A stretch of 50,030 bases of DNA, the filler included, from Sphacelaria rigidula (Eukaryota): assembly GCA_964200075.2 (NCBI GenBank). It is 3 parts of 3 records of this genome, joined end to end, with 100 filler letters (N's around TTAATTAATTAA, not from the genome) between each part and the next. Parts side by side here need not be neighbours in the genome. Positions count along the whole stretch, not along the records: positions 1 to 16,619 come from CAXNAA020001300.1; positions 16,720 to 33,332 come from CAXNAA020001301.1; positions 33,433 to 50,030 come from CAXNAA020001302.1. One strand, given 5' to 3'. Below the pieces are notes generated by a model. It did no database searches and had not been told where the DNA came from. It saw only the letters and a list, made by a program, of their open reading frames with translations. Within the stretch, counting starts at the first letter, position 1; every line of letters starts with the position of its first letter. The position numbers and the translations under genes are program-made. This document shows positions 9,005-38,910 of the stretch, one piece after another.

Positions 9005-9044
9005 ATCCCCGTCCTCGTCCTCGTCCTCGTCGTCGTCGTCGTCG

Positions 9045-9075
<31 letters not shown>

Positions 9076-14751: not shown

Positions 14752-14821
14752 CCCCCCCTCCGGCGAGGTCAATGGTCTGATGACTATGGCATGCATGATC
14801 ATGAGTACACCCCCCCCTCCG
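14752..14821 (+). mobile_element. Oligo(C)-tailed retroposon-like insertion, copy 1 (47-bp core 14763-14809, TSD CCCCCCCTCCG)
   Basis: ccccccctccg [gcgaggtcaatggtctgatgactatggcatgcatgatcatgagtaca c] ccccccctccg. Confidence 0.8.
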
Positions 14822-14888
14822 ACAGGAGCCTTCGTCTGACGCATCCGTTACTATAGGCGATTTTACAGGCGGTGGTGCTTCTTCGTAG

Positions 14889-16500
14889 TTGGGGTGGATC
14901 ATGTCGAGTCCACCGGAGCAAGGGATAATGGTGGGTCTTCCGCGAGCCACAGTTCAAGAGATTGATACGTTGGACAATTTAGTTGGGGACCTGAGTGACA
15001 GCTTGGACCACGTGAGCAACCGCTTCGATCGCGTCGCAACCAAATTGGACGACACCAAGGAGGGTGGGAGAAATTTGGCTTTGCAGCTCACGAATAACAA
15101 CGACGGGGTTCGCCGAATGAGGAGGTGTTGAACCGTCTGGCATCACCATGGAACAGACCTATCACACCAGGGACTGGCTCTATCACATCAGGTGCTGGCT
15201 CTACCAGCCGCTCCGATGACGGCAATGTGCCCCACATGACGCCCGGTAGGGGTACTGTCGCAGACGCGGCTTGGTCGCTCGGTAGTGAATGTGACGATGT
15301 GACATTGTCGTCGCGAAGCCGTCCGGTGGTGGTGTGGTCAGGCATGTTGGCTATACGCTCCGAGTCGTTAGGTGCGCCAGTTGGGCGTCAAAGGAAATTT
15401 GCGAGTGCTGGCTACGGTGTAGGTGGATCTCGCCATTTCAACTTCGGTATACCGACCCCATTTCGCATCCCCGCCGGTGGGTGGGACAGTGTCAACCCGC
15501 AGACATCTAACATCGCCGGAGCTGACGCTGTGGGTGGGGTTGGGGCCGGTTGGGCGTATTTGCAGCGGTGGCGCGTTCCGAATCAAGCGGCAAATCAAGT
15601 AGCAACCTGGGCTGAAGTGGAACAAGGACGCAAGTATAAAGTGCGGGCTCGCGTGCAGCTCTGGCAAGATTCATCCTCGCGCAAGTGGTGGCTCCTAACG
15701 GCAAACCTCCTGCGCAGTCCTTCACCTCAGACGAATCGCAGAAGGTATTACGCTCAATGATCCCCGTCTCGTCAAAGGTGGAAACGGAACGCTTTCAGCC
15801 ATCGACGTTGCAGCCATCATGCCGCGCGGCGCGGTAGGTTCCGGTGCGGGCGAAGAATATTTTCTTGCTAGATCGATCGGGTTTGATGAGCGAGGTTTTT
15901 GGGCGCTGGTTGGGTGCCGGTTTAGGGGCGCCGTCTGGTGCAGGTGAGGTGTAGTGCGCCAGGCGGACGGAGGTGCTTCAGACGGCCGTCTGGTGCAAGG
16001 ATAATATTTTTACACAAACGTCAATTTTCCATGGTGGTCCAGCCTGCGGCCACCGGTGCCATGGCGCACATCATCAACTCCGACCTCGGCAAGGGGTCGG
16101 ATACCCTGGTGTAATGGTCGCAGCATATCTATGCCCGGAATTGCTCTCCCCCGCCAAACACCGGCGTTTAGGCGCGTAGTCATTTCCGCCTCTCCTCGCC
16201 TTCCCTTAGCTACGCTCATTCATTGCAACCGGGTACGACGCCGTCAGATAGTGAGAGCGGGGTATGTTGATGCGTCGGAAGTGGTGAGGATGGGAGGTTA
16301 CAGTGGTGTTGGCGCGAGTGGTGCAACGGGAACCGGTGCCGGAAGCGGCAGTCGTGGGGCGGCGGCTGGGGGCACCGTTACCGCAGGAAGCGGACAATCG
16401 GCGGCTAAACGAATTCGGCGAAGCCAGCCGTGCTTCGGGTTTCTCGACTCCGGGCACTATCGATGGGGTGACAAATACGGGTATAGCCACGACGTACAAC
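14889..16500 (+). pseudogene. Degenerate gag/ORF1-like sequence with coiled coil and a CCCH-like zinc finger (possibly DIRS/Ngaro or other retroelement ORF1)
   Basis: Heptad-like QEIDTLDNLVGDLSDSLDHVSNRFDRVATKLDD; a Gly-rich linker followed by PCFGFLDSGHYRWGDKYGYSH (decayed C-x8-C-x5-C-x3-H); broken frames. Confidence 0.4.
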
Positions 16501-16550
16501 GAACTGGAGGTTGTGGTAACTCGAGTACCACCAGCAGGGGTGGCGGCAGT

Positions 16551-16619
16551 GGTGTACTCATGATCATGCATGCCATAGTCTCAAGACCATTGACCTCGCA
16601 TCCCCACAATGCCGGGACG
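16551..16619 (-). mobile_element. Oligo(C)-tailed family, copy 2 (runs into gap)
   Basis: ggtgtactcatgatcatgcatgccatagtctcaagaccattgacctcgc is the reverse complement of the copy 1 core. Confidence 0.8.
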
Positions 16620-16719
16620 NNNNNNNNNNNNNNNNNNNNNNNNNNNNNNNNNNNNNNNNNNNNTTAATTAATTAANNNNNNNNNNNNNNNNNNNNNNNNN
16701 NNNNNNNNNNNNNNNNNNN
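16620..16719. other. Assembly spacer: N-run with TTAATTAATTAA linker
   Basis: 100 bp; ttaattaattaa at 16664-16675 gives stops in all six frames. Confidence 0.95.
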
Positions 16720-17168
16720 GCGACCTGGGGTCGCGGTTTCGCCGCTGGTTGCTGGTCGTGGTGTGGGGGGGGGGGGGGGGGGGGGGCAACACAATACGTT
16801 CTTGTATGGAGGTGGAATATAATATTTGTGTGGATGAATTTTTGATGGTTGATGTTTGGTTGTGGTGAATGATATACAGTGGGCTTTTCTTCTTGTGGAG
16901 GAGGGGAAGACAAAATATATACCAGTCATAAGGACACAAGATGCGACACCAGTCAGCATCGTACTGTGAATCACATTTGTCATTTTTTCAAGTACACAAT
17001 AAAAGAGGAAGAGGTTGGGAAAAATATATATATAAATATCCAAGTGAGGGAGAGAGACAAAAGCGAGCGCGAGTTGAGTGATGGAACAGCGGAGTTCAGA
17101 GAACCGCACCTTGGCGGGACCCACCCTGTATATCCCCCGCCCCCATCCCCATTTATCCTCATCCTCAC

Positions 17169-17378
17169 CTCGAACATGGCCGCGGCCTTGGTCAGAAACT
17201 CGAACAGTCCCGGACGCATGCGCACGTAATAGGAAACCTGCTTGACCGTCGGCTCTTCCTGCTCCCCGTCACCATCACCGTTCGGCTCACCCCCACCCTT
17301 CTCGGGTCCATCGCCTTCGGCGTTGTCGACCATGCGAGTCGCCGGGGGAGGGTCTGTGTTGTGGATCTTGAAGATGAT
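17169..17378 (-). CDS. FCP1/SCP (NIF-domain) CTD phosphatase-like gene, exon 3
   Basis: ttttacag acceptor and GAG|gtgagg donor; 210 bp, phase 0; encodes ...SYYVRMRPGLFEFLTKAAAMFE (NIF motif YVxxRPxxxEFL). Confidence 0.88.
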
Positions 17379-18887
17379 CTGTAAAAGAAGGGGGTAAGTG
17401 CGCGGGTGAGGGTAAAGCAGGCGGGGGGATTGGTGATGGCGCAAACAGAAAACAATGTACGTCCGTGTACTAATGTAATATGGGTCTTGCTAACGGGTTT
17501 GTTTTAATTCCGAGGAATCTAAGAAATTTTCGGAAAAGTACCAAAAAAAATTCTGAAGGAATGTGCGAGCAATCTCTTCAACCCTCAGACGGCGAACCCC
17601 CCTCGGATGGACGTTCGAATGGAATTATGCCTCAGTTGGCATTCAGAACAGCTTTTCTATCGCTGCATAGAGCGTCTTTTTTCATTGACATGTGTGGTTG
17701 TTGGGCATCGATGTAGAAAATAGTCACGGAGAACCCCTGGCCGGTTTTGACCCTGCGGTCAATTGCGTGCAGAGTCAACACGTGTGTTGTATGTCTCCGC
17801 TGGATACGGCGGCAAAAAACGGCTTACTATTGACCTTCACTGCACATGCTCAGTGTTTCAAAACACTCCAGTGTGGAGGAGCTATGCTGGCAACATCAAA
17901 GGGGTCAAGCAGGCGGCACCAACCACACGTAGAATACAAGGCACGTTATTTGCGCACATCTAGAGTTGAATTCTAACGATCAAAATGATAGACACGACTA
18001 TTATAGATAGCGAAGTAGGCCAAATGTAGGGGAACAAAGTGACCATTTTGATAGCCGTGAGTGGTCAGAATTGAAGCCTCGCTCCCGTAAGACCCCGTTC
18101 CCGGCGTTTGATTTTCCATGAGAAACATCCGAGGGTCAGACGAATTAATGATCCATGTGGAAATTATTTGATTTTAGTGCGATTGATTCGTACGGTACGA
18201 ATCAATCCTCAGGCTTCGTTTTCAGCGTTGCAACCCAGGTACGCGCAGCCCGGGCACGTGCAATGGCGCGAGAATCGCGTGGAGACCTTTTTGACTAGCG
18301 GTCAACTTTTTCATCTCTTCTCGAGAAAGCAACCAGGCCTGAAAAATCGTGGATTTGGTGATTCGAACCGGCCATGATTCGTCCGAACCGTGGACATATC
18401 GAAACACACATGGTTGACTGGTGAGCTCGCTTTTCGAGTGTTATACGAATAGGTCCCCCGCCCACTGGAAACCCCGAGATGTCCCTGGACCGTTAGCCCG
18501 TAGAACTCTTCCGAGGGGGAGCTCGCTGTCAAAGGGGTATCCCTTATACAGACCCTGTACTAGGATAAAAAGTAGGAGCCACATCTCGCCATGCAGTAAT
18601 TTTTCACGTAAAAACTGATGCTGATTCAACAGATGACCCATACACGCCATCAAAGGGGTAACCAGGTAAGCCGAAGAGAGTAATTTAAGACCGACTTGTC
18701 GTACAGAGAGGGAAAAAAGCGAAAAAATGCCCGTGCAAAAAAAGCCGTAATTATCAAAAAAAATTAATCTTCATTTTTCATACTTCTCATCTCTTTTATC
18801 GTGGACTTCGGACTCCTCAAAAGACGACCAGGAGTGCCTAGCGCACTATGCGGTGTTCGTTGATTTTTTATATTCCCATCGCAGAGC

Positions 18888-18932
18888 TAACCCTTAGATC
18901 CAGAAAGACTAATCTCGCGGTCTAAGGGTTAA
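18888..18932. mobile_element. Internally deleted piggyBac-type MITE
   Basis: taacccttaga...aagactaatctcgcggtctaagggttaa, same TIR as 25226-25323. Confidence 0.6.
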
Positions 18933-19715
18933 AAAGGACCGACTGTATCTCAACCCCCACCCCCCCCCCCCCCCCCCCCCCCCCCTCCCTCCCCTCCCCT
19001 GCTCTCCNNNNNNNNNNCGCCCCAACCCCAACACCCACAGCCAAAAAAAACCAACACGCTCGGTTTTGAATGAAAAAAATCCAAAACCCTCCCCCCCCCC
19101 CCCCCCCCCCCCCCCCCCTTTTCTTTTTCGCCGCGCAGGGATACCCGAGTGGGATCGTCGACTTGGCACCAACGGCCCGTTCTAACGGTAACCGGGACAA
19201 AAAAAGTGACAACGCACCGTGAGAATGATTCTGGCGGGTGGAGTTGACACTTGAATCGGGATAGTAGACCATCAAGGTCATGCATACTACTTTCACGTGA
19301 AATTGATGCCGATTCAAAATATGAATTACCTACCCTCGCCGTCCAAGGCCCAGGAGTTAGTTCTTGTTTTCTTCTGTACTTCCACTTGGTTGCTCATCAG
19401 TTCTCAACCACTCGGAAGGGCAGAAGAGAACAAGATTACAAGATAACGCCTGAATCGCTTTCACGGCACATTCTTGCTTTCCTTGTCTCGTTGATTAAAA
19501 CACGGCCTTACGCACGCCCCCACAACATCGAGTGAGAATGTCCGTCCGGACGGGGAAGTCGGCTCAATGTCAGTCAATCGCATCATCTCGAATACTGTAC
19601 AACAACCAATTGTTGGTCCTTTCACCGCGAGGGTGGGATAACGTGTTGCACCGGAATCATTTTCTCGTGAAGAGTTCGGACCATCTTTCATGGCAGTCAC
19701 CAATTTCGAGCTTAA

Positions 19716-19896
19716 CCCTTCGACCGCGGCACGGGTAGTCCATCTAGGTCATGCAAAACTTTGTCAAGTGAATATTGATGCCGATTCAGCAGGTAAGCTA
19801 CACTCGCGGGTAGTTCATCTCGATTCACGTGTACTTTTTCCACGTGAAATTGATGCCGATTCAGCGGGTGACCCACCTACCATCCCGGTGAAGGGG
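19716..19896. mobile_element. piggyBac-type MITE, TTAA-flanked
   Basis: TTAA|cccttcgaccgcg...ccggtgaagggg|TTAA, with two internal aa(a/t)attgatgccgattcagc motifs. Confidence 0.7.
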
Positions 19897-21092
19897 TTAA
19901 CGTAGACCGGAGGGAAAAAAATCGGGAAACACATGTCGTGAACCGATCCGGGCCAAATCTACGGAGAAAAAATCGGGGTGTCACGATTTCTGAACGAATT
20001 CCCCAGGTTTTTCATCGGGGGGAAAGGGAGGTCTCCCCGATTTGGAGGTGACGTACGCGCCTTGACGTACAACAGTAGGGTACGAGGCGTTTGATATTTT
20101 TGCAACAGCAGCAGGAGACAGTCTCGTAACAGCACAGAGCGTGCCTGCCCGCGCCAGCTGCTGAAGCAGCTTCGCACGGGGTTTTGACAAGCAGATAGTA
20201 AGTGTTGACGCCGTACCCTACGGCAATAGTAGTATTTCATGCTGCACTGCGCTGCCATATATATCACTGTCACGAATGACGCTGTACTATCGTAGTCTAT
20301 TGTCGCTGTAGCAGGGTCATGTATAGCACTGCAATACAGTACTGAACTCTTGTCGCACACTGCTCGTCCACTGCTCTCTCGATACCGACCGTGCCATTAA
20401 TGTATGATAGAGTGTCCTGCACTCCATCACCATAGGAAACCAAGATACGACACTGTTGTACTCGAACGATTATTCACCACCTGCCTGCCCTTCGGCTTCA
20501 TGCAGTTGTACGCGATACTCGTACCACTCTCATGTAGAAAATGATTTGTGTGTACCGAACGGTTCCACAGATTTGTGTCACCATAAAGCGGTGCCCCCGA
20601 TTTCGAGTTCGCAAATTTGAGTCCAGGTCTCAAAATAGTCCACATTCGTAGCCATGAAAGATGGTCTGTGAGTGTGAGACGCAGATCGCCCACCCTCGCT
20701 GTCAAAGGGTTATTAACCCTTTTTTGGGACCGCACTCCGACAAACATGATTTTTGCGCCTGGGGGCCTTGTTGTGAATTGGCATCGTTTTCAGTCTTTTC
20801 CAAGTAGAACTGATGCCGACTCACGAAAAAAACTCACAAAAAAGTCCCTGCGCACAAACACAATATTTCTGGGAGTCCGGTCCTCCAAGGGATGGATCCT
20901 TTAACCGCCACAACAGACCATCTGAACCATGATCTCATTCTTCAAGTGGAGGCGGTGCCTATTCAGCACACGACCTGCCCTAACGGTAAAAATCCCCTCT
21001 CTGGCGATGTGGCCGTGGAAGCGACAGCTTCGGAGCTGCCCCCCTGCATAACGTGCATACGGGAACAGTCCTCACCGGATCTGCTAGCGATT

Positions 21093-21390
21093 TGTGTGTG
21101 TTGTGTTTTGTTGTCATCTCATCTGCTCTGGACGCCGGGCTACACGTTTCAGTATACGTGGGCGCATCAGCCGGGGTCACCAGAGGAAGATGACCAACAC
21201 GGGGACTTTTGCTTTTTGCTTGTTCCCACCCTCACTTTGCAGTGCTTCAAGACTCATCTTCTATCGGGAGAGGGGTTCGTCGGTTCCTGTCCCTTGTCGA
21301 CCGTGGCGTCGAATTTTGTGTACCCACGACATACAAGTAGTCGCTCTCAGCTGTTGTTGGGCATGTTAAGAAACGAAAAAAGAATCACCC
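21093..21390 (-). mobile_element. tRNA-derived SINE body
   Basis: Homologous to 25778-26060 (tgtgtgtg tail, gggcgca.cagccggggtcac, gtcgaccgt, gtcgctctc). Confidence 0.7.
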
Positions 21391-21781
21391 ACGTATATAT
21401 TCCCATGATCATCAGTGTTTGCCGTTACCGGCTATTTCATACTAATTTCCTGTGCATACTTTATAATTTGACTGCACAAAGGAGGCCTGAAAATCACAGT
21501 TGAAGAGGAACACGTATGGGGTGTCACGTGAGACGGAGGGCGCTTCGAACGCGACGACGGAATTGTTCACGTCAATGACGCGTGAAGCGGTACACAACAA
21601 TGTCATGATATTCAGTCATCTTGGAGCCCAGCCCCCACACAAGTAATGCATGCCGTAATATGCAACCAGGCTTTCCAAGTTCATTATACATACAACAATA
21701 CACGAGTATGATTTACAAATAATGGAAGCCATCCATCCTCTTCACAGACGTCAGATTATTATTTTCGGTTGATTCTCTGAC

Positions 21782-22075
21782 CTGGAAGTCACACGGGCAT
21801 GGCTTGCGAGTGCTCGACACAAGCGTCTCGTCTAAATCCAGCACCAGCGTCGTTCTCTTGCCCGAAGGTGTCGCGCCGCCGCTCGATCGTTCTCTGCTGT
21901 TACACTTGTCTCCCGTCACCCCCGTGTTGACCCGCCGGAAACCTGAGCGCCGCTGCTGCTGCTGCTCAAGTGATAACTGTGGCTCCAGAAGAGGTGGCAG
22001 AGAGGAGGACTCGTCCCCAACGTCCACGTGCTTGAGGGAGCGGATGAACTTCTTCTCCGCATCGGGCACCACGAC
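21782..22075 (-). CDS. FCP1/SCP CTD phosphatase-like (CTDSPL2/SCP4-like) gene, exon 2 with catalytic DxDxT motif
   Basis: ttcag acceptor and CAG|gtcaga donor; 294 bp, phase 0; encodes VVVPDAEKKFIRSL...KRTTLVLDLDETLVSSTRKPCPCDFQ. Confidence 0.9.
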
Positions 22076-22521
22076 CTGAAGATTCACAGAAACAGTGCGT
22101 GCAATATACGCATGTTTAAAAACGAAAAGAGGATCAAGTTGTTCGGGTATACAGCAGTTGATTACGAAAAAAAATGGATAATGACCACAAAAACGACCTA
22201 TAGGTAAGGACGAACTACCGTAGTAATCACATCCTGGAAAAAACATTGACTTGTAAGAAACGTACTGCGTACAGTATGGAATCCATTGTCTGCTACAAAA
22301 TGCGCAATAGTCGATACTGTACACAGTACACTTTGTGACAAGTGTATTCTTTTGTTCAGGGTGTGGTCGTAATAATGTTGCCTTGAGCTTGCCAGGAGGC
22401 ATCCGTCTCGGATACGAAGAGGGATAGGTAAATGAAGTACTTGCCTACTATGGCGCGCCCTTTCTTCTCTCTGCATGAGGAAGCATTCATCCCTACCCCA
22501 AACAACACTCGAGTGGAGTGT

Positions 22522-22722
22522 GGGGGTGTACTCATGACCTCACATGCGGTACGTAGTCATGAGGCCATTGACCTCGCATCCCTACACAAGCCGGGACGGA
22601 GCACGCCAGGTTTTGGCCGGAACACGCTCGCAACTCATCACCAAGCAAAGTGCCGTCATGTGTCCGGCGGATCGCATCAGTGGTGATGCTACATCCTGCA
22701 AGGATTCTCCGGCCCGAAACGT
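22522..22722 (-). mobile_element. Oligo(C)-tailed family, copy 3 (long, at least 200 bp)
   Basis: gggggtgtactcatga...ccattgacctcgcatccc...gggacggagcacgcc; aligns with copy 4 over about 200 bp. Confidence 0.75.
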
Positions 22723-22831
22723 TGTGATTATTTTGTTTGTTTATGGGTGGACCCGATTTCCTAGCTTGCGTAGTGAGTGGCGTGTTTGAAAGCGTCGACG
22801 CCAACCGACGCCAACCCTCAAACGAGGCAAA

Positions 22832-23030
22832 GGGGGGGGGGGGGGAGGGGTGTACTCATGATCTTGCATGCCATAGTCACATGACCATTGAACACGCATA
22901 TGGCGGGACGGAGCACGCCGGGTTTTCGCCGGACCTGGCTCGCAATCAATCACCAACCGCGGAGCACCGTGGTGTGTTCGGCGAGTCGCATGAGCTGCAT
23001 CCTGCTAAGATTGTTCGGCTCGAACCGTAC
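22832..23030 (-). mobile_element. Oligo(C)-tailed family, copy 4 (long, G14AG4 tail on plus strand)
   Basis: G-run followed by tgtactcatgatcttgcatgccatagtcacatgaccattgaac...gggacggagcacgcc. Confidence 0.8.
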
Positions 23031-23138
23031 TGATTCATCTTGCATTTGGATGACCGCCTCCAACGAGTTGCTTTGTTTTCTGGTATCGCCACTTCCAGAG
23101 ACAGTCACGGCTTTTATACTGCCTCATGGGCGTCTTAC

Positions 23139-24551
23139 CATTTCAAAGGGAAGGGGAGGGGAGACAAACGAAATCCCCAGCTTCCACCACCTCCTTTGCC
23201 CCCCAAATGACCCTTTCCCAAAACTAACCTTTGCGCGACGTATCGCCCCAACCGAATCTCCCGAGGTCGGCGGACAATCCCCGCTATCAGATTCGCAAAT
23301 CACCGCCAACTGGCCGGCCGCCGCGGGACCACCGCGAGCGGACATGCTGCGGCCCCTACGGCGACGGCGCAGACTCTCGCTGTCCACACCGCCGGATCTC
23401 ACGTGGCTTGCGCCCCTGTCCGGGGTCATCTGCGTGAGCGAGTCGCCCTTCTTTCGGCTGTTCGTGGGGGCACCACCCACAGAAGATACTGAAGGGCGAT
23501 GGCGGCCGCGGGCAGTGGTGGCGCTGCTGCTTTTGGGGGCGTTGTGGTGTAGAGCACGACGTGGTGTATCCTTAACCTTGTCGCCACTGTTCGTACTCCT
23601 ACCCCTGCTGTTGCTGCTGTCGCTGCTGATGCTGATGCTGCTGTTCATGTTCGTGCTTCCGCCTTTTGCAGACACAGCAGGTGTGCCCCTGCCAATCCTA
23701 CCACCACTACCCATGCTGCTGTTGCTGCTGCTGCTGCTGTTCATGTTCATGCTTCCGCCTTTTGCAGACACGGCAGGTGTACCCCTGCCGATTCTACCAC
23801 CACCACCACCACCACCACCGCGGCGGCCGCCACCCCAGCCGCCCGCGGTAGGACCCATCGCTTCAGCATAGCGACCGCCAGGCTGTGGCGACAACGACGA
23901 CGACGAGCGAACCCTTGAGGCATTGCCGAAACCCCGTCGCCCCGGGACCGAAGCGGCTCGACGGAAGCTCGGCGCCGGAGCCACGTTCGACGCCTCGACT
24001 ATGGCGTTGTACAGCTCAGCCCGCGACGTCGGGGAGAGGGGGGCGGCGGAAGCAAGGCTTGTAGCCTCCTCGTATGAGGGCAAGCGCGATACCGGCGCCG
24101 GTCTAGCTCGGGTTCGGTTTCTTCTGGGGGTGGTGCTGATCTTGTTGCTACCGCTGCCGCTACCGACTAGCCTCTTCTGCCGCACTGTCTTTCCTTTCTC
24201 TCCGGCGGAGTGTGTGTTGTCGCGGGGGCTAGTATTGCTCGAGCTGCTGCTTGTCTGCGTGTCAGTGTCGGATCCACTGGAGGGTGGGTCTTGTCCGCGC
24301 TCTCGCTCGCGTCCCCGCTGCGTGGCTGGTGAGGGCGGCCTCGACAGCTTCCGGGTCCCGTGCGATTCGCTGAATCTTACCGCATTATCGATGTTGGCGT
24401 TGGTAGTGCCCCTCATGGTGGGCGAAGTGTAGGGGGAAACGCCAGTGGCGGACCATCGGGATGAGTCGCTGTGGCTGCTACCCGAATAGCATGTCGGGTT
24501 CGTGCCGAAGCTCGATTGGCTCAGCGACCTGATGCCGTCTTTTTCTGCCAT
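23139..24551 (-). CDS. CTD phosphatase-like gene, probable exon 1 (471-codon Ser/Arg/Gly-rich disordered N-terminus)
   Basis: Long ORF from ATG 24551 ending at a strong ATG|gtaaga donor in phase 0, compatible with exon 2. A long disordered N-terminus is typical of CTDSPL2-like proteins. Confidence 0.72.
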
Positions 24552-24650
24552 ATCCTTGGCTGTTGCATGGTGGAACGCTGGCGCTGCCGTCGATCTGTTC
24601 GGGGTGTTTGTTTTTTCCGTTTTTCGAAGAACAAGGAAATGAGAAGAAAA

Positions 24651-24698
24651 GGGGGGGTATACTCATGATCAAATATGCCGTAGTCGTAACACCATTGG
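24651..24698 (-). mobile_element. Oligo(C)-tailed family, copy 5 (short, diverged)
   Basis: gggggggtatactcatgatcaaatatgccgtagtcgtaacaccattg. Confidence 0.65.
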
Positions 24699-25225
24699 GG
24701 AAGAGGGGCCGAGCGGGGGGGGGGATTCAGAAAAAAACAAGGCGGGGGCGAGTGAGGGTGGACAAGAACGCCAAAGTCTACGAGGCTGGGATACGAACTG
24801 GGCCAGCCGTAAAACTTGTGAACATACAGCACGCAAGAACTTCTCAGCTTTCCCGAAACACTCCCATTGGAGCATATCGCTGCGAACTGCTTACCAACCT
24901 CGCAATGCACGGATTCACCGCTAGTCGATTGGCGCAGGTTTGGCCATCAAGGTACTCTACTGCACTGAGTATCGGGTGCCTCTCATTTCGTGGCGTGAAA
25001 GCATGTTTTGATTTTTTTCACTCGAAATTGATGCCGATTCAACAGAAGACTAACCTCGCGGCCTAAGGGTTAAATTTGATGCCGATTCAGCAGGTGACCT
25101 GCCCTCACCGCCGGAAAAAAAAATGGTGACGGGGGATACCGCCGTTTTTTCCAAGGGGTCACGACATTTCACAGTTTTTCACACAGAGCACCGCGTTACC
25201 CCATTCCCGACAAAAACACCATTAA

Positions 25226-25323
25226 CCGTTAGACCGCGAGATTAGTCTTGCTGGATCGTGAATACTTTGTTTCACTTGAAATTGATGCCGATTCAACAGA
25301 AGACTAACCTCGCGGTCTAAGGG
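25226..25323. mobile_element. piggyBac-type MITE, 98 bp, TTAA TSD, ~24-bp TIR
   Basis: TTAA|ccgttagaccgcgagattagtctt...aagactaacctcgcggtctaaggg|TTAA; a half copy lies at about 25015-25073. Confidence 0.85.
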
Positions 25324-25777
25324 TTAACTAGCTGGGCTACCTCACAGCACAAGCGGTCGTTGCAGTTCTACACCTAGTCTTTTTTGCTCCGTGTATTGTA
25401 CATGAATTGTCAACAAACACGACGCATATCATGTCGAACGTGACTAGTTTCTGTGCCAGTAAGCTTTCTTCACTGCTATCATGAACCCGGCCATGTTACC
25501 ATTTTACAGTAGAAGGTCTGAGAACGAGAGTAATGAAAATAACGGGGTTCAGATCGGTCTGGTGATGCCCTCCCCCCCCCCCCCCTCCCTCCTCGCCACT
25601 CCGCCCCCACCCCAACTTTTCCCCCAACCAGAATTTTGACACCATCATCCAGAAAAACTCCATAAAGAATAACCTGAACATAGAACATACATTCACACGA
25701 GATATTCAGACGTGGGTAACCAAACACGCAACAGCCCAGAGATTGATGAATTTCGGAACAGACGCATTTCCCTAGTT

Positions 25778-26132
25778 TGTGTGTGTGTGTGTGTTGTCGT
25801 CCCATCTATTTTGGGCGCCGGTCTTCACCTCTCGGTATATGTGGGCGCACCAGCCGGGGTCACACAGGAGGAAGGCCAACACAGGAGCTTCTTCTCGTTT
25901 ATTTGTTTTAGTACCCCGCCTTCCTTCTGCGGTGCTTGCCTTTNNNNNNNNNNAGAGGGGTTTAGCAGTCCCTTTCCCTCGTCGACCGTTAAGTCGAATG
26001 TTGTGTACCCACTACATGGTCGCTCTCCACTGTTGGGCATTGTGTGAGAAAAAATCCAAGATCGCTCCGAGAATTGAACCCATGACCCAAATGTCAGAAG
26101 ATGTCGAGGTTACCAACTGAGCCACCGGGGCG
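25778..26132 (-). mobile_element. tRNA-derived SINE, near full length, (CA)n tail
   Basis: Minus strand: cgccccggtggctcagttggtaacc (A box)...gggttcaattctc (B box)...body...(CA)n. Confidence 0.82.
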
Positions 26133-29100
26133 AAAAAGGCTTGTACCTCATAAAATTTACGCAAAAACACACGGGGAAAACATGTACCGGCGGCGCAGCA
26201 AAGGTTCGACCGTCGTACGGTACGTTAGAAATGTACGGGACAATTATGTACCGGTAAATTGGGGGTACGACCTGCCCACGATAGGTTACAAATGTAAGGG
26301 TATTATAGGAAACGTACGCTGATCCTGACACCGCCGTTTTCCTTTGGGGGGGGGGGGGGGGGGGGGAGGGAGGGGTGCTATCGCGGCATAACTCGACTAG
26401 TCCACTTTGCACTTTTGCTATCCTGTTAGTAGTGTGGTGAAATGAGGCCTCCTGCCGTTGCGGAACGCGCGTCTCACCAAAACCGTTACCGTATACACGT
26501 TCACTTCAGGATTGATTTCTCGCTTCTCTTCTTGGCACGAATCTGTATGCGCACGCACCCATTGAGGACACTCTCCGCTCAAGGAACGTTCTTTCAATTT
26601 TTTCGCCCATCCTGACACCGCCATACTGTTTAGTACCTGTACGGTTGTAATTTCGCACAGGAGTATGGCAAGATCCATACTTGAAAAACCAACTGACAGG
26701 CCTGGTGTCCAAGAAGCGGCCTCGAGCCACAAACAGGACATGTTACCCTCATCATACGTCTAGACACTACAGCAGCGCGTCGTACAGCAGTGCATCTCAC
26801 AGGGCCGTATCATATGTAGAAAATGACGTGTTAATGTTACTCTCATCATACGTCCGGACATACAGCGGTGCATGGTCACAGCAGTACATCTCACATGGCC
26901 ATACTGTAGAAAAAGACCTGTTGATCATTTCGCGCACACATGTGTATATGTATACATCGTCCATCATTTCCGTAATGGGAATAACGAGGGCATGGGGTTC
27001 TACTGTAAGGATCATGGGAAAGACTACGTGTGGAGCTCGTGTAGAGTGAGCAAAATCAAGGCAACACTAGTTGCCCCCTCTTTGAATGAATCGCGTACAG
27101 TTATCACATGCCAAAGTTTGAGTATGAGTAAATACAAGCCAGCAATGGCATCTCTAGACGAAACACGCGCACGTGCAGACACACACACGCACACACATGG
27201 GAAGAAGAACTCGACGCTTGAAGTAGGAGTGCTGTTTTAGTGGCACGGGGTATCCTAAGCCGGAAACGACAGAGTCGGGCTGGAAACGACGAAATCGGGA
27301 AAAAGAGGGGAGAGGAGGAAAATGCTACGCGTATTACCGCCGTTACTCTATTTACCGCATTTACTCCTGCATCCAGGGTGGGGAAAACAACCCAGAGGCG
27401 CACAGGCTGTGGTAATGATTCTAGATATTCAAGTGGGAGAAATCCGTCTGGTGTCCCAAAGGGTGCATGTCATGCCTGAGGGGAGGTGTCGTTGGTAGAC
27501 GTCAACTCAGCGTTTAGGTGCCGATTGACACGAAAACGCGTTCGGCGCACGCTGAGAGCGCACGGGACGGTCGAGCCTCACTAAAGATTCGATCCTTGTT
27601 GTTAAAACCTAAATCGAGCAATCCAACTTTGTAGCCCAACTCCGGTCAATTCTAATCCAAGGCCTAAGGGCTGCCTGGGCTGTGAGCTGTGACGAATCTG
27701 GATATGGCTTTTCGCGAAGACTGCGATAAATCCCTATTTTACCCCACAACATTGGTGATGGTGGTAATCGGGGGCGCATGGCTCGTGAGAGAAAAATGTT
27801 ATACCTCGTGGGAGTGAGCACACTTCGACAGAGTGAAAACACGGGATGGCACGCACTGCCACATGTGCGTGTGTTTTGTGTGTGCCCATATTTTCACATC
27901 AAAAGTTTTGGAGTAGAGAAGGCAAACCAGTGTACTTACTGTCTGGAGTGGTCCAGGGAGTTTTGATTAGTTGATTGCTTGTTGCACTTCAACTGATGTC
28001 CAACCTGTATATGCACCTGTGATGGCCTCATCGCATGCCAACATACTTCTCCCTTTCGGATGCATGATACTTAGCTATTCCCCCCTCCTGCAGCGCAATA
28101 TGGCGTACGGATTGGGGCGCCATCGTGAGCGCTGGCGTCGCGTGAGCGATGCGCATCATACGGTGCACTTTGGAAATATATTATAATAGATGGTGATACA
28201 GAAGGCAGAGAGTACAGTATACGCTCACTACGGCCAAGTGACATTTCGCCAACATTACAGTACAGTATCCGTAGACGACCACCATCCGCAGCTTGGGGTG
28301 GTGTTCATGACTCGTTCCTTCACCACCGACATCAATGGAGAAGGAACAGCCTTATCCACGTGTGCGTTGATGCTCGAAGCCCACCCTGCCCACGGAGCAC
28401 GTTCCCAAGTCATCATCATAGGCATTGATCTGCAGTTGGTGCGAGTCTTGGTGCGGACATTTAGAGTGCCAGCCTTGACCCTTTCGACAGCGGCGGTAAA
28501 GCTTTCGAGCTTCCGAAACTGTGAAATGTTCGACAAAGAGTGACTCCCGACACAAAAATCAAGTCACTGTCAGAACATGTCTCACTCGTACTTGTTTGTG
28601 ATCCATTTTTAGCATGAATGGATATCGACTTTGACTGACTGTACTCTAGAGAGAGTCGAACAGGTGAAGGAGGACCCCCAGTACTGACCGCGGATTCGCG
28701 GCATGCATGGGTCATGAACAATGCGAACTCACTTCTTTCTCCCGAACAGGGCGCGCATGGACGAGGTAATACCCAATAGGCCACGCCGTCGGGCCTGGCC
28801 GGACAGGGTCTTCGAGGACTCCGACTTTCGCCCAGAGTCCAAAGCACGTTGTGACCGCATCTGCATCATCCCGAAGAACCTTTCCTCTTCTTTAAACTGT
28901 CGTTGTAACAACGAGACCACCGCCGGTGATAAGGTGGCTATCAAGGGGGAAATGCAGTAGCCGCTCTTCAATTCGCGTGAATGCCCACTATACTGGTGTT
29001 GCTGTTGCTGTTGCCGCTCCTGCTCCTGCAGCTCCTACTGCTCCTCCTGTTGTTCTTGCCACCGGTGTACTGGGTGTTCGATGTTATTGCTGCGTAACCT

Positions 29101-33332: not shown

Positions 33333-33432
33333 NNNNNNNNNNNNNNNNNNNNNNNNNNNNNNNNNNNNNNNNNNNNTTAATTAATTAANNNNNNNNNNNN
33401 NNNNNNNNNNNNNNNNNNNNNNNNNNNNNNNN
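33333..33432. other. Assembly spacer: N-run with TTAATTAATTAA linker
   Basis: 100 bp, linker at 33377-33388. Confidence 0.95.
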
Positions 33433-33759
33433 CCTTGTTGATTAATGTATATTATACTCTCCACCAAAACGTAAAAATCCAGAAACGTGCACTGCCAAGA
33501 AGGGGCGTGATCAATCATGAAGAGCCATTCATGTAGAAAAACAACACGTCAGAGCCTAATTCTTTGGCCACGCGATTGGGCGTGTGCCTCTTCAGCGGAT
33601 TCTTTCTGCAACCAACAAATCGGGTATATCCTTGAACATAACTGTATCTCTTATTTCAACTTCACCCATATGCCATAATCCAACCACAATATCAATTTCC
33701 CATGCATCCAGGTCTGATTACATGCATCCATCATCATTGAGTATGAGTATGTTCGATTA
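33433..33759 (-). repeat. Copia 3' LTR (visible homologous part; left end cut by gap)
   Basis: About 95% identical by eye to 41036-41364. Confidence 0.85.
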
Positions 33760-34483
33760 GCCCTCGTACTCACGGCTCAACTCTACTCAATTCCCACGTC
33801 TCATACTCTCACATTCGATTAGCCCTCCTACTCACGGGCTAATTCTACTCATATCTCAAACCCTACTAGACAATAGTCAATGCTATATTATCAAGCACAA
33901 GAAAACGCCCCACCTGTGTACAGACATTTGGTAACGCCATCTACTTAGCAAACTGAAATTTCTTTCTTTAGTCCTTTTCCTCAATACGGCATGGCATACT
34001 CATGCTATTCATCCATCCCATCACGCCTTTCAGTACTGAAAAAGGATTCGAATTCAAAACTCAAATCATCGCAAACCAAAATGTAAAAAAATCCCAGAGA
34101 TATATTCAACAAAAATAGAAAAATTCATCAACCAACCGCAAAGTCGAAAACCAGTCCAGCTTCCCCTATTTGCTATGGCAACTTTTGTGGCACCCGAAGT
34201 CCATACCAAAAACCATTGAAGAATATTTCGGCTGCAACAAAAAATCAAATCTGGTCGTACCCGTCGAAGACCGAAATCTTCCACCAAAAACCATTTGAAA
34301 AATATTTTGCCTGCAACAAAAATCAAATTCGGTCGTACCCGTCGCAGACCGAAATCATTAATTGTAAAATTGAAAATATTGCAACCATGGCCTCGTACCC
34401 CTACTTTTCCGGGGTGGAGAAATGTCCCCGAAAAGAAATCGAACCAGTTCAAACCAAACCACCGTACCAGTGTCTGGCAGACT

Positions 34484-35141
34484 CTACATGATGTTCATGA
34501 CAATTTTACGGTGAAACTCAAAAGACTCTGTCGGCAACACTTTAGTGAGGAAATCTGCGTGTTGATACTCCGATCTCACGTAAATAACCGAAACCTCATT
34601 CCTCCCGACCAACTCCCTGATAAAATGATGCCGTACGTCGATGTGCTTGGAGTTGGAGTTTGTGATTGGGTTCTTTGCCAACTGAATAGCTCCCTGATTA
34701 TCCTCAAACACCGGGATGCATGGCATTCCCATCTGCGGCAACATGAAACGCCAAACCTGTCTCGGAAACAACACCTGCTTCAGAATATCTGTCATGGCAA
34801 CGTACTCTCTTCCGTTGTTGACAGTGTCACACACTTCTGAGTCCTTGAAAACCAAGACACACATCCACCTCCACTCATTACCAGCCCTCCTGATACCGAT
34901 CGCTTATCAGCTGCCTTACTTGCGTAGTCTGCGTCTGCAAACACATGAAAGCTCCACTCCTGTATACTTCCTCTGCAAAAAGAAATCCCCAGCGAACTTG
35001 TTCGCCTAACATACCCCAAAATCCCAAGCGCGGCATCCAATCAAGGTGTTTTGGTGAGGCACAGTACCTCGTTACTGCACGTACTGCGTTAGATATGTCT
35101 GGCCTCGTTTGTATTGCCAGCCACATCAATGACCCTATCAA
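34484..35141 (-). pseudogene. Copia RT C-terminus and RNase H (frameshifted)
   Basis: IGSLMWLAIQTRPDISNAV; FADADYA...RSVSG; TLSTTEE; EDNQGAIQLAKNP...KHIDVRHHFIRE...QHADFLTK. Confidence 0.93.
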
Positions 35142-35312
35142 TTACCGAAACGGAAATTCCATTGCCTGTTCTTCTACACTGAACTCTTTAAGCTTCGCAC
35201 CAACAGCGATGGGGATACTCTTTCCCGACTCTACTCCGTATTCCTTCGCCAACTCTTCTGCGTATGTTTGTTGAGAAATTTTCAGAGTCCCCCTTGCAAT
35301 ATCTCTCTCATA

Positions 35313-36005
35313 CTACAGCCCAGAATACCAACGCAAATCCCCGAGGTTTTTGACTGGAACCATCGTGTTGAGATCTTTACCAAACTCGTCACATCTGTCC
35401 CCCTCTCCCACTGCGAATATATCATCTACATGTACTACGATGATGATAATCACCCTGCCATCCTCAATCAACCGAAATACACATGAATCCGCGAAGCACT
35501 GATCAAATCCCAAGACAAATAAACATTCCGACATATGATTCTGCCACTGCCTACTTGCCTGTTTCAATCCGTACAAAATTTTGTTTAGTCTTACTATTTT
35601 ACCAGATAAGCTACCACAACCAAGTGGCAACCGCATGAAAACATCCTCGTCCAACTCAGACTGTACAAAAGCTTGTACGATATCAAAATGCCGCAACGCA
35701 AGATTTTTCTCACAAGCCAGAGTCGCCAACAAACGTACGCTAGAAACTGCTACAGTGGGGGCATACAACTCTCCAAGATCTATGTTCTCCCTCTGCATAT
35801 CTCCTCTTGCTACTAGTCTCGACTTCATCTTCGTGGGCCATCCGAACTCGTCCGCCTTCCAGTTATATACCCACTTTGCATGGATATAGTTGTCCACGAG
35901 TTGCTCTTCCGCTGAGTCTATCGTCCCCACCTCCAGAATTCCCCGCCATTCCCGCCCCATCGAGTCCCTCCATAAATCACCGTACTCCGAGCGCACCGCC
36001 TGCAT
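35313..36005 (-). pseudogene. Copia reverse transcriptase (RVT_2)
   Basis: KWVYNWK...KSRLVARG, FDIVQAFVQSELDEDVFM, LYGLKQASRQW, VHVDD. Confidence 0.95.
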
Positions 36006-36128
36006 GTATCCCTATGGGACCTTGAGATCCTTTGCTGGACAATGTGGGAGTTCCGGTGGGATGTGCGGCGGGCGCTGCTCACGCAAAGTGGTATCTATAT
36101 CTTCACACGTCGCCAGCCTCGTCGCGAG

Positions 36129-37829
36129 TCACATCGGTATCCCCCCGGGTCCCCCTTTCTCAACATCGTTGCCCTGTCGCCCGGCATCAACCACGCCGCG
36201 CGTGAGGAGAGCAGACAGCAAAGATCGCTTATCCAACTGCTGCATGAGTCCCCAGCTGTGGTACAAGAGTGCAGCCTTGTCTGTCTTGTATGGCGTCGAC
36301 CCTGACCGCGTCCGCCCTGGCTGCCTGGGGTCTGTTTCCAGATCCAGCTCCTTCCTCACGTTGATTGGAAGCGGCGAGAAAGAATGGTCCATCACTTCAG
36401 GGGCGGATAATGTATCGCGCGACGCAGTCGAGGAAGATGCTGATGGTATCGGGGACGGGATCGGGGCCATAGAGCCGGAGAAGATCGTCGGGGATGTCGG
36501 CGGCGATCGATGCATCGGCGGAGTGGACGGGTCCGTCGGCGGCGGTAGTACCGGCTGAGGCGGGTGAGTCGGCGGGCGCGGTGGCTGCAGGATCGGCTGA
36601 GTCGGCGGAGTCTGCTGGCGCGACGGCGGCGGCGGCGGTGGCTCGAACTCCACTGTGTGGTATGTCGGCGGCAGCAGCGGTGTGGCGACGGCGGCGGCGG
36701 TGCTACCATGAACCTCCTCCCCTCCAACGAGCGGCGTCCCGTGATGCTGCTCTGCTGACGGCGCGGCGGCGGCGACGACGGTACTGGAATGGGTCTCCTC
36801 CCCCCTGACGATCGGCGTTGCCGACGATGGCAGTGGCAAACGTGGTACCGTCCAGACAACGTTGTTGGTGTAGTAGACGGCACCGGTAGCAGCCTTCAGG
36901 ACCTTGACCGTCGATGAAGAATGTTTACTGCCATTATTGAGGTAATGGCAGGCCACGGACTGAGCATCCATCTTGCCTCGACGGCTGACCCGCATTATGC
37001 CAGGTTGCAGAAACGGCACAATCTGTAGCGGCGGGCGCTTGCCAGCGAACAATTCATACGGCGACAGTCTTCCCGGGTTCGCTGTAGTAGCGGAACGATT
37101 GAACCCGTCCGCTGCCCACACCGCGGCCTCCAGCCACAGGCGCTCCATGTTCTCCCCCAGATGAGGTATGTCGTCGAAGCGGTACTCTGGGAATAGGCGT
37201 CGCGCTTCAAGACGGGCGGCGTGGCCCCCCTTCATGACCCTCCAAATTGCATAGTCCACCACAGCGTTGTGCTTCGGAGTGTCTGGGGCAGTGTACTCAC
37301 GACGAATCGTTGCATCGTCGCAGAAGGCACCGAAATCGTTGGAGGTGAACTCGCCCCCGTTGTTCATGCGAAAGCAACCGGGGGTACCGATGGCGCTGAC
37401 GTCGGCGATGAAACGTTTCACCTTCGCTAGCGTGTCAGACTTACGTGCGAGGCCATAAAACATCATGAAGCGCGACTTGCTGTCGACGCAGCCCAACATG
37501 TGGGTTGATGCGCCCAGAGTACGAGGGTGTGGACCGGTGAGGTCGAGATGCACCCTGCCAAGTATAGTCGTTGCCCTCGTGCCCAGACTTCGCGGAATAC
37601 CTGCTCTCTGTCCCTTCGCTCCCAAACACCCAGCACATGGCGCCAGTACCCCCGTCAATGTAATGCCCTGTTGTTTCGCAGTTTCTCGGAGTAACGTCTC
37701 ACGAATGTGGGGGAGGGAAACGTGGAAAAAGCCAATGTCGACTTCTTGTTTTGGTTTTCCAACTGCGAATGGGTGAGGGCTGGGGGCAAGAACAGCAAGG
37801 GCCGTCCCGTTTTTAGCTACAACTCCCAT
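36129..37829 (-). pseudogene. Copia pre-integrase (HHCC) plus rve integrase and Pro-rich linker
   Basis: FHVSLPH...CAGC; RVHLDLTGP; RMNNGGEF (catalytic D to N); PKHNAVVD (catalytic E to D), so probably inactive. Confidence 0.92.
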
Positions 37830-37964
37830 TCATTCACTCAGAAAACGCGGAAAACACTCTTGGGGGGGGGTCATGTCAAATCCAGCCATCAGGGCTTCAT
37901 CCTTGAAAACACTCAAGTCTGGACAGTGAAGCCCTCGGACTGCATGGAGGGAACCAACACCATT

Positions 37965-38285
37965 CGTGGGAGCAGTTACAACGATTGCCGGTGAAGCGGA
38001 CTGTAAACCAACACTTGAAGTTACCACGTTCGCCGGAGGAACGGACTGGACACGAACGCTTGGGCGAGGGGAAGTTACAACGCTTGCCGGTGAAGCGGAT
38101 TGTACACCAACACTTGAAGTCACCACGTTCACCGGAGGAACGGACTGGGCACGAACGCTTGAGGGAGGGGCAGATACAATACTTGCCGGTGAAGCGGACT
38201 GGAAACCAACACTTGAAGTCACTACGTTCACCGGAGGAACGGACTGGACACGAACGCTTGGGGGAGGGGCAGTTACAACACTTAC
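37965..38285 (-). repeat. In-frame 99-bp (33-aa) tandem repeat, about 3.2 units, between protease and integrase
   Basis: ccggtgaagcgga at 37988, 38087 and 38186; unit VVTAPPPSVRVQSVPPVNVVTSSVGFQSASPAS. Confidence 0.92.
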
Positions 38286-38420
38286 AGCTGGTACGGCAAG
38301 TGGGGGGTTCTCATATGTTGACGGTAAACGAGTGGCCCTTTGTGACGAAGACCGCTCATTGCGATCGAAGCGAAGCCGACCGTCAAACATATGTACTCCT
38401 GTTTCAGTCAGGAGTACATC

Positions 38421-38910
38421 CTACTTCTTCTGCACTTGATGCAGAGAAAAAAGGTTGAAATGTACTCCTTTCAGTACGTAAACATCAGTCAGTTGCACGC
38501 AAAATTCTGAGGACGCACCTGTCGGGGCGGTAGAATTTCCCATGTGGAATTCGAGCTTCAATCCCCCTACTGCTCTGACGGGGAGAATTGTCCCGTTCCC
38601 CACGATCATGTGCTCATTTCCTTTGGGGGGGGGAAGGGGGGGGCGTACTCATTTGTTGCTTGCCTTAGTCATTTGACCATTGACCACGCATCCCTTTCGA
38701 TTCGGAGCAATTTCCTTTGGGGGGGGGGCGTAAATCAAACATACCAACCATTGAACTACTGGCATGGTGAGAAGCACCATAATCACTTATCGACTCCTCT
38801 GTACGATCATCCACATCAAACCCTGACCCACTCTGGTTGAGCAAAGCAACACCCAAAGTAAAATCACCCAACTCAAAACGTGACTCGCCTTGGGACACAG
38901 AATGTGCCAT
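38421..38910 (-). pseudogene. Copia aspartic protease region (interrupted)
   Basis: ISDYGASHHASS (cf. DSGASxHM), then IVGNG...LTDVYVLKGVHFNLFSL. Confidence 0.8.
38616..38728 (-). mobile_element. Oligo(C)-tailed family, copy 6: 76-bp insert (38634-38709) with 18-bp TSD inside the copia protease region
   Basis: atttcctttggggggggg is duplicated at 38616-38633 and 38710-38727. Removing the insert restores FDLRPPPKGN-EHMIVGNGTILPV in frame. Confidence 0.88.

Follow-up and report, generated by a model that had tools for sequence, protein, structure and literature searches.

The transposons of brown algae have been little studied, and several kinds of described retroelement come close to the family reported here. 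For many Chlamys Penelope-like elements, (C)n and (CA)n serve as insertion targets (Craig et al. 2021, PMC8557442), and the same paper describes for them strong 5′ truncation, head-to-tail insertions, non-autonomous derivatives with common 3′ ends, and target duplications that are often not discernible. Ectocarpus carries three Chlamys families with 4,782 copies; the non-autonomous family most numerous in it relies on RTE-X LINEs (PMC12477816). Among animal LINEs of the APE type, Waldo (ACAY), Mino (AC), Kibi (TC), Koshi (TTC) and Dong (TAA) target simple repeats that match their own 3′ tails (PMC3812793).

The DNA analysed here, a stretch of 50,030 nt from Sphacelaria rigidula (the window), contains a Copia element with LTRs at 33433–33759 and 41036–41364; the best matches of the Copia integrase orf are Ectocarpus sp. 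proteins, at about 50–56% identity. A retroposon family with a tRNA-like head and a (CA)n end is also present. A further set of six copies finds support as a highly abundant retroposon family that is non-autonomous and is marked by a constant 3′ end, by truncation on the 5′ side and by unequal flanking duplications. All six copies share the 3′ end ...ATGAGTAC(A/G), or ...GTATA in one, and what follows it is C-rich in all six and A in none. A 24-nt core pattern, allowing up to 3 mismatches, matches the window four times (none in 100 shuffles), and six matches, against a shuffle mean of 0.28, were obtained for a 15-nt terminal pattern when at most 2 mismatches were tolerated; the match at 33993 lies outside the family, and the other five are copies of it. 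A BLAST search of the window, queried with the longest copies, returned all six and no seventh.

Only one copy lies on the plus strand, a 5′-truncated 47-bp copy (14763–14809; identified by pattern, BLAST and flanks) that holds the 3′ core up to the fixed end ...ATGAGTACA and is followed after 14809 by C8TCCG. The other five are on the minus strand, with 3′ ends at 16553, 22527, 22851, 24658 and 38644. The first of these (16553–16619; pattern and BLAST) is followed by CCACTGCCGCCACCCC and measures at least 67 bp, its 5′ side being interrupted by the assembly gap and linker (16620–16719), past which no homology to it was seen. Copy A (22851–23143; BLAST) is the longest at 293 bp and is followed by C4TC14; among the contigs listed, those derived from other genomic copies stop aligning at 23141–23143. 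Copy B (22527–22763) is followed by C5ACACTCC and measures about 209–237 bp, with clear homology to copy A across 22523–22735 and a weak extension to 22763. A diverged copy of about 57 bp (24658–24714), ending ...ATGAGTATA, sits between a C10 run (24715–24724) and the C7 run that follows it (24651–24657), and a 66-bp copy (38644–38709), ending ...ATGAGTACG and followed by C8TTC9, lies within the Copia LTR element. The six copies with a single 3′ end that the initial annotation had described thus hold up against shuffles and in BLAST, and their variable 5′ extents (47 to 293 bp) are confirmed; the starts it gave for minus-strand copies fall in C/G runs and not at element ends, and its one copy of at least 200 bp proves to be two, copies A and B, which are 71% alike across 216 aligned positions in BLAST. 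These two lie head to tail, 320 bp apart, and, being only 71% alike, are read as separate insertions and not as a Penelope-type pseudo-LTR; a single Chlamys insertion can leave pseudo-LTRs, partial tandems or inverted copies.

Exact flanking duplications, both starting with a C-run, are present in two of the five copies that can be judged, the tally leaving out the copy at 16553 because of the gap. The 47-bp copy is flanked by CCCCCCCCTCCG, a target-site duplication of 12 bp (11 bp had been proposed), whose upstream occurrence (14751–14762, plus strand) comprises the end of a C16 run (14743–14758) plus TCCG, and whose downstream occurrence (14810–14821, plus strand) begins with a C8 that is indistinguishable from a tail. 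The 66-bp copy has an 18-bp duplication, CCCCCCCCCAAAGGAAAT, at 38710–38727 upstream and 38616–38633 downstream (both minus strand), and between the latter and the end of the copy lies C8TT (38634–38643, minus strand), which contains the clearest non-target C's. The earlier claim of two clean duplications of unequal length was therefore sound. Of the remaining judgeable copies, copy A has an imperfect duplication (18 versus 23 nt), with CCCCTCCCCTTCCCTTTG as its upstream half (23144–23161, minus strand) and C4TC14TTTG (CCCCTCCCCCCCCCCCCCCTTTG; 22828–22850, minus strand) as tail plus downstream half; the copy at 24658 is flanked only by C-runs; and the candidate duplication of copy B, CACGCCACTC and CACTCCACTC, is doubtful.

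Of the five copies with a 5′ junction inside the window, four have a C-run directly upstream (those at 14763, 24658 and 38644, and copy A, where the run is interrupted by T's). Because the C-run is also found on this upstream side, it was already in the target before insertion. C's unexplained by target duplication occur in two copies only, as the C8TT at 38634–38643 and as the C5 at 22522–22526 after copy B, whose duplication is doubtful, and these suggest that some C's travel with the element; two of the three copies with a readable duplication need no C beyond it. The oligo(C) tail proposed in the initial annotation as part of the RNA thus finds partial support, from these two copies only.

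Reverse transcription primed at C/G runs very probably gave rise to these insertions, and the combination of a fixed 3′ end, 5′ truncation, and unequal duplications starting with a C-run fits target-primed reverse transcription (TPRT) with the nick within a G-run, in support of the signature first recognised at this locus. An endonuclease would nick the G-rich strand within the G-run, and the DNA end, terminating in G, would then act as primer for copying the element RNA from its fixed 3′ end, where C's at or beyond that end probably aid pairing. Synthesis would often stop early, giving 5′-truncated copies of 47–66 bp, and a cut in the second strand 12–18 bp further on would yield duplications that start with the C-run. 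Since the duplications reach beyond the C-run, they would locate the initial nick within the G-run and the other one 12–18 bp away. As an explanation of the whole, we prefer TPRT at G-run nicks with a Chlamys-type partner enzyme as the most likely source of the activity, a reading in which confidence and doubt are about equal.

The partner enzyme itself would, by analogy, be a Chlamys-type Penelope-like element with an N-terminal GIY-YIG endonuclease and a reverse transcriptase, an identification that we put forward as plausible with doubt slightly ahead; autonomous Chlamys elements are characterised by the N-terminal GIY-YIG, CxC and an RT with IFD. It is favoured because Chlamys is the only retroelement group that we found in print with (C)n and (CA)n targeting, and because it occurs in brown algae. 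As in Chlamys and its non-autonomous derivatives (such as MRC1 of Chlamydomonas), as described in PMC8557442, the targets are (C)n here and (CA)n for the second retroposon family of the window, and the two share strong 5′ truncation, a short non-autonomous form, head-to-tail neighbours, and, in our search, no hammerhead motif; the lineage agrees also, as Chlamys is present in brown algae (PMC12477816). The family differs from Chlamys as presented in PMC8557442 in that no GIY-YIG/RT partner, single-event pseudo-LTR or 30–40-bp extension was seen in the window, and in that its duplications are readable and reach beyond the C-run. At the two clean junctions no 30–40-bp ‘tail’ extension of the Penelope type is present, the element running directly into its duplication or separated from it by no more than C8TT. 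The window shows no autonomous element, whatever its kind, with the 3′ end of the family, so the Chlamys link rests on shared target preference and lineage. Among 350 stop-to-stop orfs of at least 65 aa in the window, Pfam recognised only the Copia RVT_2 and rve domains, with no LINE orf and no GIY-YIG/RT orf. For one retroelement group, Chlamys, insertion at C/G runs has been published before (PMC8557442). The finding reveals no new mechanism, and the suggestion that no C-tailed, G-tract-targeting system had been described does not stand. The readable duplications do supply what the Chlamys paper calls usually unreadable (PMC8557442).

That the partner is instead a LINE or an undescribed reverse-transcriptase element, for which a real oligo(C) tail of the RNA must pair with the nicked G-run, seems doubtful to us. 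The strict form of the original model, in which a LINE (RTE-X, RTE or CRE in brown algae) drives a SINE-like element whose RNA has a true oligo(C) tail pairing with a nicked G-run, is a possible reading on which the balance is clearly negative. The C8TT before the 18-bp duplication and the C5 after copy B, which seem to be element-borne, speak for it. So does the combination of short truncated copies and clean 12–18-bp duplications, a classic outcome of LINE/SINE activity and no less typical of LINE-driven SINEs than of the preferred reading. That two of the three copies with a readable duplication need no C beyond it weighs against the model, as does the lack of a LINE orf in the window, and the literature that we searched offered no LINE whose tail or target is (C)n, whereas (C)n targeting is published for Chlamys. 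Four of the six copies can fold a hairpin some 25 nt from their 3′ end, its 5–6-bp stem (TGGTC/GACTA) closing a variable 4-nt loop. Stems of this sort are found at ‘stringent’ LINE/SINE 3′ ends (PMC3747384), but the stability of the hairpin does not exceed that of shuffled sequence (z between −1.5 and +1.0). Among the variants listed for the stem-loop stretch, the frequent ones fall only at loop positions 22880 and 22882, and none is a compensatory change in the stem.

The top family of Ectocarpus is non-autonomous with a 3′ end shared with RTE-X LINEs, and the family here resembles RTEX-N1_Ec32 and similar LINE-dependent Ectocarpus families in being a short retroposon with neither coding capacity nor a traceable 5′ origin, in representing the repeat type that is most abundant in a brown-alga genome, and in not being a strict SINE; RTEX-N1_Ec32 is, however, about 600 bp, against 293 bp here, and is defined by the 3′ end that it has in common with RTE-X LINEs (all as described in PMC12477816). 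LINEs targeting microsatellites that match their tails lend the LINE model further precedent, and the likeness to Waldo, Mino, Kibi, Koshi and Dong consists in the match of tail and target, not in any orf that would place the partner in R1 or Tx1 (the clades of the microsatellite-specific APE LINEs) or in another clade; those have di- to tetranucleotide targets in animals, whereas the target here is a C/G homopolymer in an alga (PMC3812793). A strict-SINE head, derived from tRNA, 5S, 7SL or snRNA and bearing an internal Pol III promoter, was not found for the family with Rfam or ARAGORN: the Rfam scan of the whole window at gathering thresholds gave no matches, an E-value scan of 22450–23250 gave four chance-level matches with none to these RNAs, and ARAGORN found none. 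The LINE/SINE pair envisaged in the initial annotation thus yielded neither a partner nor an RNA-gene-derived head in the window.

The family resembles L1/Alu priming by poly(A) at T-rich nicks in that the duplication starts with the tail base, copies are 5′-truncated, and the passenger reaches very high copy number, and it differs in that the base is C, not A, and that every copy here retains a specific 3′ core of 47 nt, which may point to sequence-specific (‘stringent’) recognition and not to recognition of the tail alone. Were a LINE or undescribed reverse transcriptase the partner, the system would be a homopolymer-C counterpart of the poly(A)-dependent priming of L1/Alu, and many long C/G tracts of the genome would have been seeded by a family of an estimated 10^4–10^5 copies.

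Two further origins are highly improbable. Read on the opposite strand, the copies show a G-run followed by TGTACTC..., much like the junction of a polypurine tract with the start of a 3′ LTR (a G-run plus TG... in four of the six), and there is a Copia in the window; an origin as LTR-retrotransposon end fragments is nonetheless refuted by the flanking duplications, since those of 12 and 18 bp enclose just 47 and 66 bp with the G-run on both sides, whereas the duplications made by LTR elements are short, constant in length and placed around the complete element; the motif is moreover absent from both Copia LTRs, and one family copy sits within that Copia. A DNA element, either MITE or Helitron, would account for a short hairpin close to a fixed 3′ end but is contradicted by the strong 5′ truncation, by the unequal duplications (12 and 18 bp, where a transposase would produce one constant length and a Helitron no duplication), and by the repeat search, which listed no inverted repeat at the two ends of any one copy, only pairings between separate copies.

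Public contigs from four runs were aligned to 22300–24900 at 80% likeness or more, giving 61,731, 34,850, 48,389 and 3,466 aligned contigs; the three DNA-type runs contribute 34,850–61,731 each. Summed contig depth over copy A in run X1, which is not equivalent to copy number, is 3.3–8.7 million, compared with about 10–60 on single-copy sequence (about 60 on the neighbouring gene), and the family may be among the most abundant repeats of its genome. Depth does not drop toward the 5′ end of copy A. Loose contig ends by the 3′ terminus, among the rows listed, finish in plus-strand G-runs (run X4 at 22847, 320 records; run X3 at 22554, 103 records), and that of one X6 contig at 24650 is G-rich, so that the genome-wide evidence on tails comprises these three loose-end rows among those listed. 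No empty site was seen among the contigs of X1, X3 and X4, which extend up to or across the junctions of copy A, copy B and the copy at 24658.

C/G tracts hamper sequencing and assembly, and G-quadruplexes can potentially form at them. By our count, 8 of the 23 C/G homopolymers of at least 7 nt in the window touch a copy of the family, which may thus both use and spread such tracts.

Each of the six copies of the C-run family (short retroposons with one 3' end, followed by C-rich sequence) reported in the initial annotation is present in the window, and no seventh was found. A 47-bp copy lies at 14763–14809 on the plus strand; the other five are on the minus strand: a gap-cut copy of at least 67 bp (16553–16619), copy B of about 209–237 bp (3' end at 22527), copy A of 293 bp (22851–23143), a copy of about 57 bp (24658–24714), and a 66-bp copy (38644–38709). 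Their 3' ends read ...GATCATGAGTACA on the element strand, with the exceptions of ...GTATA in one copy and ...AATGAGTACG in another; each of the six ends is immediately followed by C-rich sequence, and none by A. Beyond the gap that cuts the 16553–16619 copy, the sequence at 16720–16764 shows no homology with copy A, its score of 9 being close to the shuffle mean of 8.7. About 25 nt from the 3' end, four of the six copies fold a stem of 5–6 bp whose 4-nt loop varies; the stability of the stem is not above that of shuffled sequence, no compensatory changes were seen, and as a sign of 'stringent' 3'-end recognition, as reviewed in PMC3747384, it is no more than a lead.

Target-site duplications were sought with a script that compares the 45 nt downstream of each 3' end with the upstream sequence and reports exact repeats. 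The 47-bp copy is directly abutted at each end by a 12-bp duplication, CCCCCCCCTCCG. The duplication around the 66-bp copy is 18 bp long, CCCCCCCCCAAAGGAAAT; it abuts the 5' end, while C8TT intervenes at the 3' end. Two 7-mers found between the flanks of copy A (CCTCCCC and CCCTTTG) are parts of one imperfect duplication, CCCCTCCCCTTCCCTTTG upstream and CCCCTCCCCCCCCCCCCCCTTTG downstream; the 57-bp copy is flanked by C10 and C7, and the single candidate duplication of copy B is doubtful. In the two exact duplications the C-run is followed by TCCG (14751–14821) and AAAGGAAAT (38616–38727), and low complexity cannot explain these non-C parts of 4 and 9 nt. With the insert and one duplication taken out, the sequence reads C16TCCG at 14743 and C10AAAGGAAAT at 38719. 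Because the upstream half of each duplication contains the C-run, the run was present in the target before insertion, which would place the first nick within the G-run on the other strand and the second 12–18 bp from it.

Target-primed reverse transcription is recognised by three features: a constant 3' end, 5' truncation to varying extents, and duplications that differ in length. All three are seen here, and they give good support to the proposal that priming at C/G tracts starts the reverse transcription of these copies. The G-run of the opposite strand would take the first nick, with a second cut made 12–18 bp away.

No non-LTR or Penelope-like open reading frame (ORF) was found by Pfam among 94 ORFs of at least 110 aa and 256 ORFs of 65–109 aa in the window; these 350 stop-to-stop ORFs gave Copia RVT_2 and rve and otherwise weak matches to GETHR and PRC2_EED_ins, and a Pfam scan of 12 long ORFs gave a weak NIF match. 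Rfam and tRNA scans identified no tRNA, 5S, 7SL, snRNA, or hammerhead-like part in the C-run element, and no tRNA gene or Rfam family window-wide. With neither such an ORF in the window nor an RNA-gene head, the element is thus a non-autonomous retroposon rather than a strict-sense SINE.

The leading candidate for an autonomous partner is Chlamys, a group of Penelope-like elements with an N-terminal GIY-YIG and a reverse transcriptase. That a Chlamys-type partner drives the C-run family is a tentative reading, somewhat short of an even chance, and its whole basis is target preference and lineage. It is favoured over a LINE partner because of the literature on (C)n targeting, the occurrence of Chlamys in brown algae, and a second family in the window that ends in (CA)n. 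According to passages of Craig et al. (PMC8557442), many Chlamys elements insert preferentially at (C)n and (CA)n, with duplications often not discernible as a result, and non-autonomous Chlamys derivatives have 3' ends in common with autonomous ones and occur as head-to-tail insertions. The Ectocarpus repeats described in part of PMC12477816 (2025) include three Chlamys families with 4,782 copies, beside RTE-X, RTE, and CRE LINEs. The other Chlamys target is (CA)n, and the second family in the window, which has a tRNA-like head, also ends in (CA)n. Two observations speak against such a partner: copies A and B stand head to tail but, at 71% likeness, arose from separate events, and the clean junctions have no 30–40-bp extension of the Penelope type.

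That a LINE partner drives the family instead is less probable, though a real possibility. The top repeat of Ectocarpus is a non-autonomous, RTE-X-dependent family of about 600 bp (sections of PMC12477816); our literature search found no C-tailed or C-targeting LINE or SINE, and the LINE targets named in passages of a 2013 review (PMC3812793) are ACAY, AC, TC, TTC, and TAA repeats, with no homopolymer among them. The boldest reading, a LINE-type system truly dependent on an oligo(C) RNA tail, is less likely still, though possible. Whether the RNA of the C-run family also ends in C's, as initially proposed, is less clear: C8TT at 38634–38643 and C5 after copy B speak for such a tail, whereas the other C's are explained by the target. 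Transposase-made elements leave duplications of fixed length and Helitrons leave none, so the unequal duplication lengths rule out a MITE or other transposase-made element, and the presence of duplications rules out a Helitron. Reading the opposite strand as an LTR polypurine tract followed by the LTR start (U3) was also rejected, given that the units between the duplications measure only 47 and 66 bp and that the G-run is carried on both sides of the insert.

Abundance across the genome was examined in four public runs, chosen via unique sequence around the copies: three of DNA type (X1, X3, and X4) and a fourth, X6, which is RNA only by presumption and whose cover of the element is no evidence on transcription; the search for runs listed none of confirmed RNA type. 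Contigs were placed on 22300–24900 at 80% likeness, and the DNA-type runs gave 34,850–61,731, the majority below 95% likeness. In X1 the summed depth is 3.3–8.7 million over copy A versus about 60 on the neighbouring gene, and the ratio is similar in X3 and X4; summed contig depth does not equal copy number, and as a rough inference it suggests some 10^4–10^5 copy-equivalents of the C-run family, a figure compatible with six copies in 50 kb for a genome of several hundred megabases.

Depth over copy A shows no drop from its 3' part towards its 5' part. Among the contigs listed, several cease aligning at 23141–23143 yet run 50–900 letters further, which puts the 5' junction of copy A at 23143/23144, the same place as given by its duplication; the 293 bp is the length of copy A as delimited at this junction, and the full family length is possibly different. 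Loose ends beside the 3' terminus finish in plus-strand G-runs, at 22847 in X4 (320 records) and at 22554 in X3 (103 records), and X6 has one G-rich contig loose end at 24650. The C-rich flank therefore belongs to the family beyond these six copies, on the basis of three loose-end rows among those listed (there are 2,447 further rows). Among the 15 contig joints listed for 22300–24900 (copies A, B, and that at 24658), with 739 further joints beyond the listing, none takes out a copy cleanly to leave an empty site.

A piece of a related abundant family lies at about 22776–22817 (minus strand), with a bin depth of about 0.5 million in X1. Contig joints show that its body is common with the C-run family to about 22904 and is followed by the 3' module of 22776–22817, joined to the common 5' body in the joints listed via a different connector of 22–25 nt; 3' ends are thus exchanged as modules between the two.

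The mechanism itself does not have the novelty suggested for it, since retroelement insertion at (C)n and non-autonomous derivatives are already in print, for a group that brown algae are known to contain. The C-run family may be new, an exact 21-mer of its 3' core having no matches in metagenome, genome, and viral contig collections; its very large copy number and the readable duplications that fix the nick positions are also possibly new.

The window (G+C about 50%) contains 23 C or G runs of at least 7 nt versus eight A or T runs of at least 8 nt, and eight of the 23 touch a C-run family copy. Long runs are G22 (16765–16786), C26 (18960–18985), C28 (19091–19118), C14 (25572–25585), G21 (26346–26366), and G11 CGT C10 (44677–44700); the longest touch no copy. 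AAAGGAAA comes after both C21 at 26346 and C10 at 38719.

The second retroposon family has a tRNA-like head (GCCCCGGYGGCTCAGTYGGT...GGGTTCAAWTCTC), for which ARAGORN and Rfam make no call, and a 3' end of ...GGGACGACAA(CA)n, followed by C6 in one copy. Its members are at 49401–49661 (plus), 25776–26135, about 21090–21380, and about 1300–1540 (all minus), and 3587–3697. Pieces at 49509–49580 and 49959–50030 are inverted, 378 nt apart, and 99% complementary; the pair continues past the window end and looks like a single-event structure, either twin priming or a Penelope-like arrangement. A short repeat with core TTCACGTGAAATTGATGCCGATTCAGCAGGTGACC, found about 11 times and in both orientations (2433–2811, 18598–19889, 25003–25327, and 49311–49763), often adjoins this family. 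A 300-nt direct repeat (42385–42684 and 46297–46596; 98% identical, 3.9 kb apart) could represent the two LTRs of a small element, and Pfam gave no match between the two. At 8950–10363, dense inverted and direct repeats with arms of 129–251 nt, 88–93% complementary, surround GTC/CTC trinucleotide-rich tracts.

A Copia LTR retrotransposon occupies 33433–41364 (minus), with LTR-like direct repeats at 33433–33759 and 41036–41364 (98% and 94% in two blocks), RVT_2 at 35316–36011, and rve at 36132–37829 (Pfam; both minus), the sole Pfam-recognisable coding sequence among the 350 ORFs. It contains a 99-nt tandem repeat (37969–38290) and the 66-bp C-run copy at 38644; the best protein matches of its integrase ORF are in Ectocarpus sp. 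CCAP 1310/34, at about 50–56% identity over aligned parts. A feature search gave diatom clusters instead, and the source of this eukaryotic DNA was taken to be a brown alga or something closely related, other than Ectocarpus. The low-coordinate end of the Copia element adjoins one of two identical 100-nt scaffolding linkers (16620–16719 and 33333–33432), each of 44 N, the 12-nt stop linker TTAATTAATTAA, and 44 N; as the joins are artificial, being neighbours across them counts for nothing, and the window also has two 10-N gaps. A 512-aa Ser/Gly/Arg-rich open frame at 23127–24662 (minus), with no Pfam match, is preceded by the 57-bp copy and followed by copy A. Most of this frame is matched exactly by an X6 contig of 2,987 letters, and the frame is probably a host gene flanked on either side by C-run family copies.
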